A stretch of DNA of 64,000 nucleotides from a virus. The stretch is from positions 1 through 64,000 of IMG/VR virus record IMGVR_UViG_3300032315_000979; one strand, 5' to 3'. The notes below the pieces were generated by a model. The model was given only the letters and a program-made list of their open reading frames with translations, searched no databases and was not told the origin of the DNA. Made by a program: the position numbers and the translations under genes. The stretch's first letter is position 1, and each line of letters starts with the position of its first letter. Positions 12,871 through 15,542 of the stretch are shown piece by piece.

Positions 12871-13084
12871 CTGACTGCCTCATAAAGATTTACTAAACTA
12901 ATATTACAGCACAGTAACATACACAGTGGTGTAATGTTACACGGTATACCATGTATGCCCATGTAATATTAGAGTGAATAATTATGCAAGGTAATGCATA
13001 ACTAATTAGTTGCGCCTGGTCTTACATGGTGGTAGTATTTGGTTGTTGGGCAATTCCGCTCAACCAGTAATGAAAGGTAGTCCA

Positions 13085-13540
13085 ATGGCTACAAGTAAGG
13101 CGAAAGCCAAAGTGTCGGTGAAAGTTGCAGTGTCGGCTACTGCAAATAAGGTAGACAAAGCCCGTACCACTAATGCCCGCAAAGGCGTAAAGCAACACTA
13201 TTCCGATAGCAAAGCCGTTGCGTTCTGGCAACTCTTAGCGTTGGTAGTCAAGTCACCACTAATCGCAAAGGACTTGCGTGTTGCAACTAAGAACAACGCT
13301 CAAGCCCGTAGGCAATGGTGCATAGACAATGGTGCAGTAGTGGTATCTCGTGCAGATGTCACACACAAGGTACAAGGCGATAGACCAGACAATGCAGTGA
13401 GGGCAAGACTTATCTCACTTGCCAAAGTAGACGCAAGCGCAAAGCGTGTCGGCTATATCCGTGTGCTAGACGCATACACTGCAAGTCGTAATCCAAAGCA
13501 TGCAGACATAGACAAGGTATATCTATATCGCATTGCGTAA
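13085..13540 (+). CDS. highly basic protein, paralog A of 13949-14428
   Basis: ATG 13085 after GAAAGG RBS; DLRVA.KNNA.ARR.WC, RPDN.VRAR, GY.RVLDAYTA, KVY.YRIA shared. Confidence 0.85.
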   Translation: MATSKAKAKVSVKVAVSATANKVDKARTTNARKGVKQHYSDSKAVAFWQLLALVVKSPLIAKDLRVATKNNAQARRQWCIDNGAVVVSRADVTHKVQGDRPDNAVRARLISLAKVDASAKRVGYIRVLDAYTASRNPKHADIDKVYLYRIA

Positions 13541-13948: not shown

Positions 13949-14428
13949 TCAAGCGATCCGATAGACATACACCTTTTGGCTGTCGGGGTGTGTCGGGTTT
14001 TTCTTGGCGGTGTAAGCGTCAAGCACTCGGACATATCCAACCTTTTTGGCGTTCGGGATTACCGAGCGTAGGGAATGGATCCGAGCCCGAACGGAATTGT
14101 CAGGTCGCTCGGCTGGCGTAGCCTGCCCAGCCTTCACGCCGTCAATTTTCTGAACGGCGAGCCAATCAACCTTCACAGCCTTATTCATGACACACCATGA
14201 ACGGCGAGCGCTGGCGTTATTTTTGCTGGCGACCCGTAGATCCTTGTCAATGATTTTTTGCCCTGAAACGCTGGCGAGCAAACCGATCAACAATTCCGCA
14301 GGCTTATCTGTGTAGAATTGCTTGACCCCTGCCGTAGCGTTCTTGGTGTTTTTTGCCGTGATCTTGGTGATCTCGGTTTTTGCCGAGACCGTAGCCTTGA
14401 CACTAGCCTTCACTTTTTTCGTTGCCAT
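13949..14428 (-). CDS. highly basic protein, paralog B of 13085-13540
   Basis: Same motifs; GAAGGGG RBS; convergent with paralog A. Confidence 0.85.
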   Translation of the reverse strand: MATKKVKASVKATVSAKTEITKITAKNTKNATAGVKQFYTDKPAELLIGLLASVSGQKIIDKDLRVASKNNASARRSWCVMNKAVKVDWLAVQKIDGVKAGQATPAERPDNSVRARIHSLRSVIPNAKKVGYVRVLDAYTAKKNPTHPDSQKVYVYRIA

Positions 14429-14731
14429 TTCTGACCCCTTCTATCTTGGGGGATCCCGTTGATCCCCGCTAATAGAAACAATACTGGAACATTACAGAAA
14501 ATCCAAATCATTAGATCCCCGCAAACCCTTATGGAATAAGGGTTTCATAAAAAGATCAAAAAAAAGATCAAAAAATTGCGGGGAATTGGATCAGATCGGG
14601 CATTGACCCTACCGAACATAGGTTCGCCCGTAGGGAAATAGCATAGCATTACCCTCTTGGATTATATACTCAATTTTTCTAAAAAATGGCGTGGGCGGGA
14701 AATGGGCGGGAGCTGGTTTAAAATGCGGGAG

Positions 14732-14770
14732 AATAGAAAAGAGACCGCTTTGCGGGCGGTCTCTCTTTCT
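14732..14770 (-). terminator. intrinsic terminator
   Basis: GAGACCGC-N7-GCGGTCTC followed by TTTTCT on the - strand. Confidence 0.7.
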
Positions 14771-14774
14771 TCTC

Positions 14775-14886
14775 AGTGTGTTAACATCCTTGCGGATGGT
14801 TACTATAACGGTCCTAAGATAGCGAAATTCGTTCTGCTCTGGTGATAGTGCAGATCACGATTGCCGCTTGACACTTTTAGGGTGCC
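14775..14886. ncRNA. candidate small RNA containing a 23S rRNA H69-H70 segment
   Basis: 14799-14830 matches GTAACTATAACGGTCCTAAGGTAGCGAAATTC at 30/32; bracketed by a - strand TGATATAAT and a terminator. Confidence 0.6.
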
Positions 14887-14898
14887 ATAAGTATTATA

Positions 14899-15075
14899 TC
14901 ACTTCTTAGAGTTACGGTAAAATCCACTGCCTTTGAGTTCTATCATCGGCGGGGAATAGATTTGTTTTAGCGTAGCGTTGCACTCGGGGCAAACATCTAT
15001 CTTCCTATCTTCCAGAATGGATCTCATCTCAGTGTGGGTGTGTCCATTAGAACATTTGTAGTCATACTGTGGCAT
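14899..15075 (-). CDS. FmdB-family zinc-ribbon protein (not in ORF track)
   Basis: MPQYDYKCSNGH...CPEC...LKGSGFY. Confidence 0.8.
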   Translation of the reverse strand: MPQYDYKCSNGHTHTEMRSILEDRKIDVCPECNATLKQIYSPPMIELKGSGFYRNSKK

Positions 15076-15128: not shown

Positions 15129-15542
15129 ATGTACGAATATCGTGTGAAGAAGGTTTTGAAGATTGTTGACGGAGATACCATTGATGTGGACATTGATTTG
15201 GGGTTTGACATCTCCTATACGCAAAGAGTTAGACTGGCGGGAATTGATACCCCTGAATCTCGCACAAAAGACGCACGAGAGAAGGCTTTGGGGCTTGAGG
15301 TAAAAGACAGACTCAAGAAAGCCATTGATGCCGCCAAAGATGTAATCATTGTAACCGAAAAGCCAGACAGCACCGAAAAGTACGGGCGCATTCTGGGTTG
15401 GGTATATCTTGACAAATCTTCCAAGTCAATCAACGAACAACTCATTGAAGAAGGTTACGCTTGGGGATACATGGGCGAAACCAAGATCAAAGACTTTGAT
15501 GCTCTGCTTGCAAAGCGAGAATCCTTTTCCAAGAAGAAGTAG
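15129..15542 (+). CDS. thermonuclease (SNase-like)
   Basis: VDGDTIDV, RVRLAGIDTPE, KYGRILG motifs; leaderless. Confidence 0.9.
   Translation: MYEYRVKKVLKIVDGDTIDVDIDLGFDISYTQRVRLAGIDTPESRTKDAREKALGLEVKDRLKKAIDAAKDVIIVTEKPDSTEKYGRILGWVYLDKSSKSINEQLIEEGYAWGYMGETKIKDFDALLAKRESFSKKK

Follow-up and report, generated by a model that had tools for sequence, protein, structure and literature searches.

The window analysed here, i.e. the whole stretch of 64,000 nucleotides, is the first 64 kb of a complete virus record of 108,687 bp with terminal repeats and a G+C content of 37.7%. The source is an uncultured lake phage whose portal protein is closest to those of Streptomyces phages (43-47% identity), and no near match to its genome was found in the isolate-phage collection. 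Two WhiB-family genes are located outside the window, at genome positions 77515-77694 and 103689-103877. Genes of this family are a hallmark of phages of Actinobacteria and, judged by its gene content, the phage is an actinophage. The locus under study (Table 1) is on the minus strand and consists of a zinc-ribbon gene followed by a candidate small RNA gene. The zinc-ribbon gene ends inside the -10 box, where the TGA within TGATATAAT doubles as its stop codon, and the RNA element begins 12 nt past this codon. No informative solved relative of the zinc-ribbon protein was found. Genes for a staphylococcal-nuclease-type protein, an oxygenase, a methyltransferase and a class II ribonucleotide reductase are present within 12 kb, and tRNA genes lie nearby on the same strand, one of them sitting 58 nt past the element in a related contig (L148). 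Over 90-130 nt, the staphylococcal-nuclease-type gene (15129-15542, plus strand) is 71-78% identical at the nucleotide level to endonuclease genes found in marine cyanomyoviruses (P-RSM4, S-TIM4, Syn19 and others), a likeness that suggests an exchange of genes among aquatic phages.

Table 1. Features of the candidate small RNA gene and of the gene directly upstream of it (window positions)
Feature	Position	Strand	Basis and remarks
FmdB-type zinc-ribbon gene, 58 aa	14899..15075	-	Pfam Zn_ribbon_8, 1.3e-9; PHROG 1076; directly upstream of the RNA gene
-35-like TTTACC	14921-14916	-	
Extended -10 promoter box TGATATAAT	14893..14901	-	Consensus scan, 10/12 with TG
Candidate small RNA gene	14735-14886	-	Roughly 150 nt; start inferred
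5'-terminal hairpin, GGCAC-loop-GUGUC	14870..14886	-	Minimum-energy fold; 5' end of the RNA predicted at ~14886
Second hairpin, including TCTGC/GCAGA	14821..14868	-	Fold
Antisense core, 29 nt, against 23S 1913-1941	14802..14830	-	28 Watson-Crick pairs and one U.G at G1930
Family-wide invariant seed, complement of 23S 1914-1929	14803..14818	-	37 variants
Seed hairpin, stem UCUUAG/CUGAGA (14814-14819 with 14771-14776)	14771..14819	-	Folds
18-nt insertion, CAUCC-GCAA-GGAUG hairpin (GNRA tetraloop)	14785..14802	-	Indel polymorphism
Intrinsic terminator: A-tract, 8-11 bp GC-rich hairpin (14740-14764), UUUUCUAUU tail	14735..14770	-	Consensus scan and relatives

Positions 14802-14830 are 29 nucleotides of 23S rRNA, corresponding to positions 1913-1941 of E. 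coli, with a single change, G1930A. The 23S numbering is anchored on G1906 of helix 69 (H69) by way of the pseudouridines 1911, 1915 and 1917. The 29-mer occurred once, and 100 shuffles gave an expectation of 0 matches, even when 3 mismatches were allowed. The original prediction had described the slightly longer segment 14799-14830 as identical to 23S rRNA at 30 of 32 positions, which is the value obtained against the E. coli-type 23S segment present in one contig (L013). The sequence that it gave for 14775-14902 was read as such in the window, together with the TCTGC...GCAGA hairpin at 14833-14855, the rRNA-like CACGATTGCCG at 14857-14867, the heptamers GTGTTAA (14777-14783) and TTGACAC (14868-14874) and, on the minus strand, TGATATAAT (14901-14893) and the hairpin at 14740-14764.

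The likeness to rRNA is limited to about 30 contiguous nucleotides and 11 degenerate ones. The bacterial large-subunit model of Rfam (RF02541) had no match in the phage genome, and none in the window either at the gathering threshold or at E<=10. At the gathering threshold, Rfam 15 gave only tRNAs in the window and in eight related loci, and the best sub-threshold matches were terminator look-alikes. The phage genome contained no other rRNA-like piece and no other stretch with at least 10 nt of 23S-sense sequence; an additional BLAST match at genome positions 95197-95224 was AT-rich, non-rRNA sequence and was rejected for this reason. The stretch to the right of the core is the complement of 23S positions ~1966-1975, and a hairpin replaces what would be H71. 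This layout shows that the gene arose from an inverted and shortened piece of 23S rDNA, covering positions ~1911-1975.

About 90 phage contigs share this short element, and its gene context in them is the same. A search with a 25-mer returned 14 short copies in viral contigs and one genuine 23S gene, and a 19-mer carrying the A at position 1930 returned 19 viral loci. The same 19-mer gave 40 loci in metagenomes, of which 26 were the phage element, 9 were real 23S genes with G1930A and 5 were chance matches. With a pattern that admitted wobble variants, 36 of 47 loci were true elements, and the remaining 11 were chance matches inside ORFs, without extended complementarity. When loci were retrieved through the neighbouring protein alone, the element was present in 25 of 80 by a substitution-tolerant search. 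The isolate-phage collection held no copy of it, all matches there being genuine 23S contamination. The copies form groups with unalignable flanks, and the core is letter-for-letter identical in groups A to D. It is followed by a short hairpin in group A, which includes the window copy, and by a longer and different hairpin in groups B and D, while group C is a minimal form of about 75 nt. Because the core recurs unchanged in groups whose flanks cannot be aligned, an assembly chimera and a decaying relic, two possibilities raised by the original prediction, are excluded.

Comparison of these relatives indicates that the functional strand is the minus strand. A TGnTAnAAT, TATACT or TACAAT box was located at a constant distance from the conserved 5' end of the RNA, in surroundings that differ between the groups. 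Downstream, the minus strand of the relatives has a conserved GC-rich hairpin and a U-rich tail; this tail was confined to that strand in group C and in others. In all cases the element and its flanking genes shared one strand, and all 25 loci retrieved through the neighbouring protein agreed in this respect. A promoter and a terminator had been predicted on the minus strand: the promoter box is conserved in relatives. The terminator was scored by the consensus scan on the plus strand only, and its reading on the minus strand comes from the UUUUCUAUU tail and from the minus-strand-only U-tail of the relatives. A TTGACA/TATTAT pair detected on the plus strand by the consensus scan was lost in close relatives, among which no conserved plus-strand promoter was found.

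The folds pointed to the same strand. RNAalifold on groups B and D gave a long 5' hairpin, the seed hairpin and the terminator. The 5' hairpin of these groups, the counterpart of the second hairpin of the window copy, comprised 206 Watson-Crick cells and contained compensatory changes. A further 30 cells form G.U pairs when read on the minus strand but would be C.A on the plus strand, with 0 in the reverse direction. As the B/D structure had been derived on the minus strand, the plus strand was folded as well for comparison: the alignment energy was -49.3 kcal/mol on the minus strand versus -29.1 kcal/mol on the plus strand, and 10 of 10 sequences were more stable on the minus strand. The z-score of the window copy separates the strands (-4.9 on the minus strand versus -3.1 on the plus strand), while its absolute energy was slightly better on the plus strand (-53.3 versus -51.6 kcal/mol) and does not discriminate between the two. 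The loop of the inserted hairpin reads GCAA on the minus strand only.

The predicted RNA, whose start was placed 7 nt past the -10 box, can be divided into several parts. The pair of heptamers GTGTTAA/TTGACAC, previously taken for a closing stem, is not conserved as a pair; the right arm is part of the hairpin at the 5' end of the minus-strand RNA. This hairpin is GGCAC/GUGUC in the window and GACAC/GUGUC in distant relatives; in groups F and H the homologous hairpin follows the -10 box and the G.U pair becomes A-U. At the base of the second hairpin, the complement of 23S 1932-1936 pairs with an upstream part that comes from the complement of ~1966-1975. In group B, the change U1939C covaries with A1970G (in plus-strand terms), which is in the other arm of the RNA's own hairpin. 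The segments that form this covarying helix are not paired together in the Rfam LSU structure, and the helix is therefore a scaffold of the small RNA rather than a mimic of rRNA; its interpretation as a copy of rRNA helix 70 was dropped after inspection of the same structure.

The target of the seed, 23S 1914-1929, comprises the 3' half of the H69 loop, the 3' strand of the helix and the C1925-G1929 mini-hairpin. In the predicted folds, the seed hairpin encloses the H69 complement, which is largely unpaired; in the window copy, its loop contains the inserted GNRA hairpin in addition to the complement of the H69 loop and 3' strand. The stem of this hairpin covaries across lineages (CUUAGG/CCUAAG, CUUGGG/CCCAAG and UCUUAG/CUAAGA). 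Groups C, E and F do not form this stem, so that display of the seed in a loop is common and not universal. The 18-nt insertion was present in L005, L009 and L011 and absent from L003, L006-L008 and L010. The hairpin at 14785-14798, which the original prediction had likened to H68, is this indel, missing in close relatives, and the supposed echo of the H69 stem is likewise indel or unconserved sequence. The terminator hairpin shows compensatory changes in relatives. In two group A copies (L009 and L036), the spacer between the seed and the terminator contains an extra insertion of about 25 nt, which folds into a CCCAG/CUGGG hairpin; this spacer collects hairpin insertions.

The perfect complement of 23S 1896-1980 then served as the reference for an alignment of 37 distinct variants, in which every mismatch carried the same score, so that the type of change had no influence. 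Opposite 23S 1914-1929, there were 0 mismatches in the 37 variants, and all 18 cells that were not Watson-Crick pairs were G.U pairs, produced by A>G opposite U1917 (2 variants) and U1926 (9 variants) and by C>U opposite G1922 (7 variants). The base opposite G1930 was U in 20 variants and C in 11, with a mismatch in 3. Beyond it, A>G changes giving G.U were also found opposite U1939, U1943 and U1946, and opposite U1940 in L042, L046 and L047, where they were read from the sequences since the local alignments end at 1938; position 1942 was mismatched in nearly all variants. A random substitution in the 16-mer would keep pairing with a probability of about 0.22-0.29 by our arithmetic (7 of 16 sites being A or C, multiplied by the chance of a transition), and at least five independent pairing-preserving events give p < ~0.002 by the same arithmetic. 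The length of the complementarity was specific to the lineage: it extends to ~1905-1910 in groups F and G and in L148, L156 and L180 (to ~1905 in L156, L084 and L148), and it reaches 1941-1948 in groups A to D.

The wobble-only changes and the lineage-specific extensions are what pairing with 23S rRNA as a constant partner predicts, and would not be predicted by a sense mimic, a protein site or a DNA site. On these comparisons, selection maintains the complementarity of the conserved seed to 23S 1914-1929 and beyond. The antisense reading offered in the original prediction is thus supported by the strand-specific G.U pairs, by the wobble-only substitutions and by the constant orientation of the element, and the suggestion that the G-to-A change is tolerated as a G.U pair agrees with the wobble-only changes opposite rRNA. 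The Rfam consensus of the bacterial large subunit is almost invariant over the target stretch, with the limit that the 23S of the natural host itself may differ; the RNA of L156 gave antisense matches to 23S rRNA from Klebsiella, Listeria, Staphylococcus, Acinetobacter and Paenibacillus. Co-folding of the RNA with an isolated 23S fragment, a calculation that concerns the fragment and not the assembled ribosome, gave a helix of 29 bp with a net gain of about -37 kcal/mol. Duplex prediction on full-length RNAs (RNA.duplexfold) was uninformative, as it produced long spurious duplexes, with shuffles at -51 kcal/mol.

The form with A1930 was also found in genuine 23S genes. The 23S gene of contig L023 (Ga0242650_1001954) carries A1930 together with G1942 (C1942G), and therefore shares 33-34 identical nt with the group A core; the short copies agree with it at 100% and the window copy at 34 of 35 positions. 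Six other contigs (L024, L028, L031, L048, L051 and L057) contained genuine 23S genes with G1930A. This form was not found among 185,579 species genomes, a collection in which the rRNA is often missing and for which the search had no positive control.

If the core of the structured minus-strand RNA bound a protein, such as the zinc-ribbon product, or another RNA, its resemblance to rRNA would merely reflect where it came from. The tight linkage to the zinc-ribbon gene is in favour of such a partner; however, a protein partner predicts neither substitutions that are exclusively A>G or C>U nor the extension of separate lineages along 23S in both directions, and no other complementary RNA partner was found in the phage genome. 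We regard this explanation as unlikely. Still less credit can be given to a site acting at the DNA level, i.e. a site cut by a homing endonuclease similar to I-CeuI, or a signal for recombination or packaging, derived from rDNA by chance, which we consider extremely unlikely. The core overlaps the I-CeuI recognition sequence, and the genes that flank the element differ between relatives; but the LAGLIDADG families PF00961 and PF14528 were absent from the complete 108,687-bp genome, the element was uninterrupted in all of the ~90 contigs and framed by a promoter and a terminator, and wobble-only substitutions and strand-specific G.U pairs are signatures of RNA.

The original prediction had also proposed an rRNA mimic that is a decoy for toxins or ribosome-binding factors. 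Such a plus-strand RNA would mimic domain IV of 23S and serve as a decoy for a ribotoxin of the MazF-mt6 type, for an H69-binding factor or for a modification enzyme. The plus strand does carry the rRNA-sense sequence and folds well in the window copy, and the host is an actinobacterium by the two WhiB genes, MazF-mt6 being a mycobacterial, hence actinobacterial, enzyme. However, the relatives have no conserved plus-strand promoter, the stem mismatches that read as C.A on the plus strand are G.U pairs on the other strand, by 30 to 0, and the substitutions keep complementarity to rRNA and not identity with it. The covarying helix is absent from the Rfam LSU structure, and the echoes of H68 and of the H69 stem were indel or unconserved, as described above. 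At the MazF-mt6 site, UUCCU is not kept, and 1939-1943 is outside the family-conserved 1914-1929 and absent from many lineages. This decoy role is accordingly very unlikely.

Among loci with a zinc-ribbon gene, the RNA element followed this gene at a distance of 57-241 nt in 15 of 20. The other five loci lacked the RNA, which is thus dispensable in some relatives; all five had a more distant zinc-ribbon subtype. This RNA-less subtype (L098, L113, L114 and L133) ends in GRGFYRNGG instead of KGxGFYRNS[RK], and most of the RNA-linked zinc-ribbon copies have CxxxH...CxxC instead of four cysteines. Several lineages carry the RNA with no detectable zinc-ribbon gene upstream.

These arrangements bear on the main alternative to a trans-acting antisense RNA, namely a cis-acting role in which the same RNA, with the same pairing, is the 3' tail of the mRNAs of the zinc-ribbon gene or of other phage genes, and, instead of inhibiting ribosomes, would catch 50S subunits after their release so that they re-initiate preferentially on phage messages. 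The 12-nt distance from the stop codon and the 15 of 20 loci are what such a tail predicts, and H69 is exposed only after the subunits have split, which is also in its favour. On the other hand, the element has kept its own -10 box even across 25-150 nt of unrelated spacer that separate it from the upstream gene, the zinc-ribbon gene is lacking in the lineages just mentioned and, to our knowledge, no such mechanism is known in bacteria. We consider a role as an mRNA tail rather unlikely.

The explanation that we prefer, with a probability of roughly 0.65, is that 14735-14886 on the minus strand is a phage small RNA gene of about 150 nt, the RNA of which is selected to base-pair in trans with H69 and loop 70 of the host 23S rRNA. 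Through this RNA, as far as sequence comparison can indicate, the phage probably pairs directly with the large-subunit RNA of its host. H69 forms the intersubunit bridge B2a. On free 50S subunits, the loop of this helix is exposed. In mature ribosomes H69 is base-paired and modified, with pseudouridines and with the m3-pseudouridine at 1915, which is added on 70S ribosomes and cannot form a Watson-Crick pair. Since full pairing over 17-34 bp requires that the H69 stem and the linker be open, and since the m3-pseudouridine 1915 cannot pair, nascent 23S rRNA and late pre-50S particles would be the most accessible targets.

The effect on the ribosome is what we infer from here. The host RNA polymerase would probably transcribe the RNA from the extended -10 promoter, and the transcript would fold into the 5' hairpin, the long second hairpin, the seed region and the intrinsic terminator. 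The seed, in the sense of the whole complement of 1913-1941, would cover the H69 loop, its 3' strand, the linker and loop 70. Contact would begin at the exposed H69 loop of free or immature 50S subunits and then spread, and the pairing would hide or unfold H69 and thereby bridge B2a. The outcome could be a block of the maturation or joining of 50S subunits, mainly new ones, or a double-stranded substrate for RNase III; alternatively, the RNA may simply tether 50S subunits. The scenario that we favour, at roughly even odds, is an RNA made early by the host polymerase, which would trap newly made large subunits, or tag them for RNase III, and spare mature ribosomes. The abundance of ribosomes, and the need of the phage itself for them, make a benefit from targeting them less obvious. 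A peptide nucleic acid (PNA) against H69 blocks translation and the growth of E. coli (Kulik et al. 2017, as cited in PMC12828698), which shows that an antisense agent can reach this helix.

Complements of H69 were also found outside this family. A scan with the canonical core gave seven non-rRNA copies, in unrelated viral contigs (L200-L206) that carry a canonical H69 complement of 20-24 nt. In three of them (L202, L203 and L205), the complement of ~1966-1975 was kept, with a replacement hairpin in between, which is the inverted domain IV layout of the window. The family described here is a separate lineage, that of a freshwater actinophage, with its own scaffold, a fixed U opposite G1930 and the linkage to the zinc-ribbon gene. 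It may be, with about an equal chance of being wrong, that unrelated phage lineages have repeatedly captured or exchanged inverted 23S rDNA and turned it into an RNA that pairs with H69, the central bridge between the ribosomal subunits; it would be a natural 'antisense drug' or handle that would act preferentially on new, unmodified 50S subunits and would stop the production of host ribosomes or capture subunits without a protein factor.

Base-pairing small RNAs are regulators of mRNAs, and CopA/CopT of plasmid R1 and RNA I/RNA II of ColE1 are loop-presenting plasmid antisense RNAs, cis-antisense to their own locus. As in these pairs, the complement of the H69 loop is placed in a hairpin loop in most lineages, which by analogy suggests loop-loop initiation followed by helix extension. 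The plasmid RNAs act on transcripts of the same locus, whereas the predicted target of the phage RNA is an unlinked and universal host RNA. Actinobacteria, the host group of this phage, are not known to have Hfq. The box C/D and H/ACA guide RNAs of archaea and eukaryotes are likewise small RNAs that pair with conserved rRNA, including H69, during ribosome biogenesis; unlike them, the phage RNA has no conserved C/D boxes or H/ACA pocket, and its duplex is much longer. We know of no partner proteins of guide RNAs in bacteria. A box C/D guide RNA was also rejected on the sequences themselves, as CUGA follows the seed only in group A (CCAAGA, CUAAGA and others being present elsewhere) and no conserved box C (RUGAUGA) was found.

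With the trans-acting small RNAs of the RybB/OmrA type and the small RNA of phage lambda (bioRxiv 10.1101/2024.10.31.621285), the phage RNA would share a short primary transcript from a predicted promoter of its own, a conserved single-stranded seed, flanking hairpins and a predicted U-tail terminator. Like the lambda RNA, it is phage-encoded and, as predicted here from sequence, aimed at a host RNA. The trans-acting small RNAs target mRNAs over 7-12 nt, whereas this RNA would pair with 23S rRNA over 17-34 nt. The H69 PNA, as described in the citing source (Kulik et al. 2017, cited in PMC12828698), has the same target helix and is a steric antisense agent on rRNA; it is man-made and short and has a peptide backbone, whereas the phage RNA is natural, structured and longer, and also covers the 3' strand of H69 and the linker. 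Our literature search found no description of a phage or bacterial antisense RNA against 23S; one match, PMC4647672, contained only a primer description and was set aside. No small RNA aimed at the functional core of bacterial rRNA, from a phage or from a cell, was found described. What is new here is the phage lineage, the fixed U.G at 1930, the zinc-ribbon linkage and the test based on wobble-only substitutions. Should the pairing prove real, it would represent a novel means of taking over the host or of controlling translation. It would also be a proof from nature that antisense agents can target H69, a point of importance for antisense antibacterials. As the target is universal, the RNA would also be a ready-made probe of 50S maturation, usable in any bacterium.

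Further features were observed to the left of the terminator. Three repeats of the GGGCGGG type (14688-14731) and the motif ATATACTCAATTTTT (14665-14679) were conserved, including in group C, which has different flanks otherwise. Read on the minus strand, these are C-rich repeats upstream of a TATAAT box (14660-14732), probably the operator and promoter of the gene at 13949-14428. In the leader of this gene (14440-14620), GATC is frequent, units of GATCCCCGC and AAAAGATCAAAA recur, and a perfect hairpin is present at 14524-14546. The gene itself (minus strand) and the gene at 13010-13540 (plus strand), both of unassigned function, are paralogues in opposite orientation with about 53% identity, and the relatives hold one or two copies of them, at varying distances from the RNA gene.
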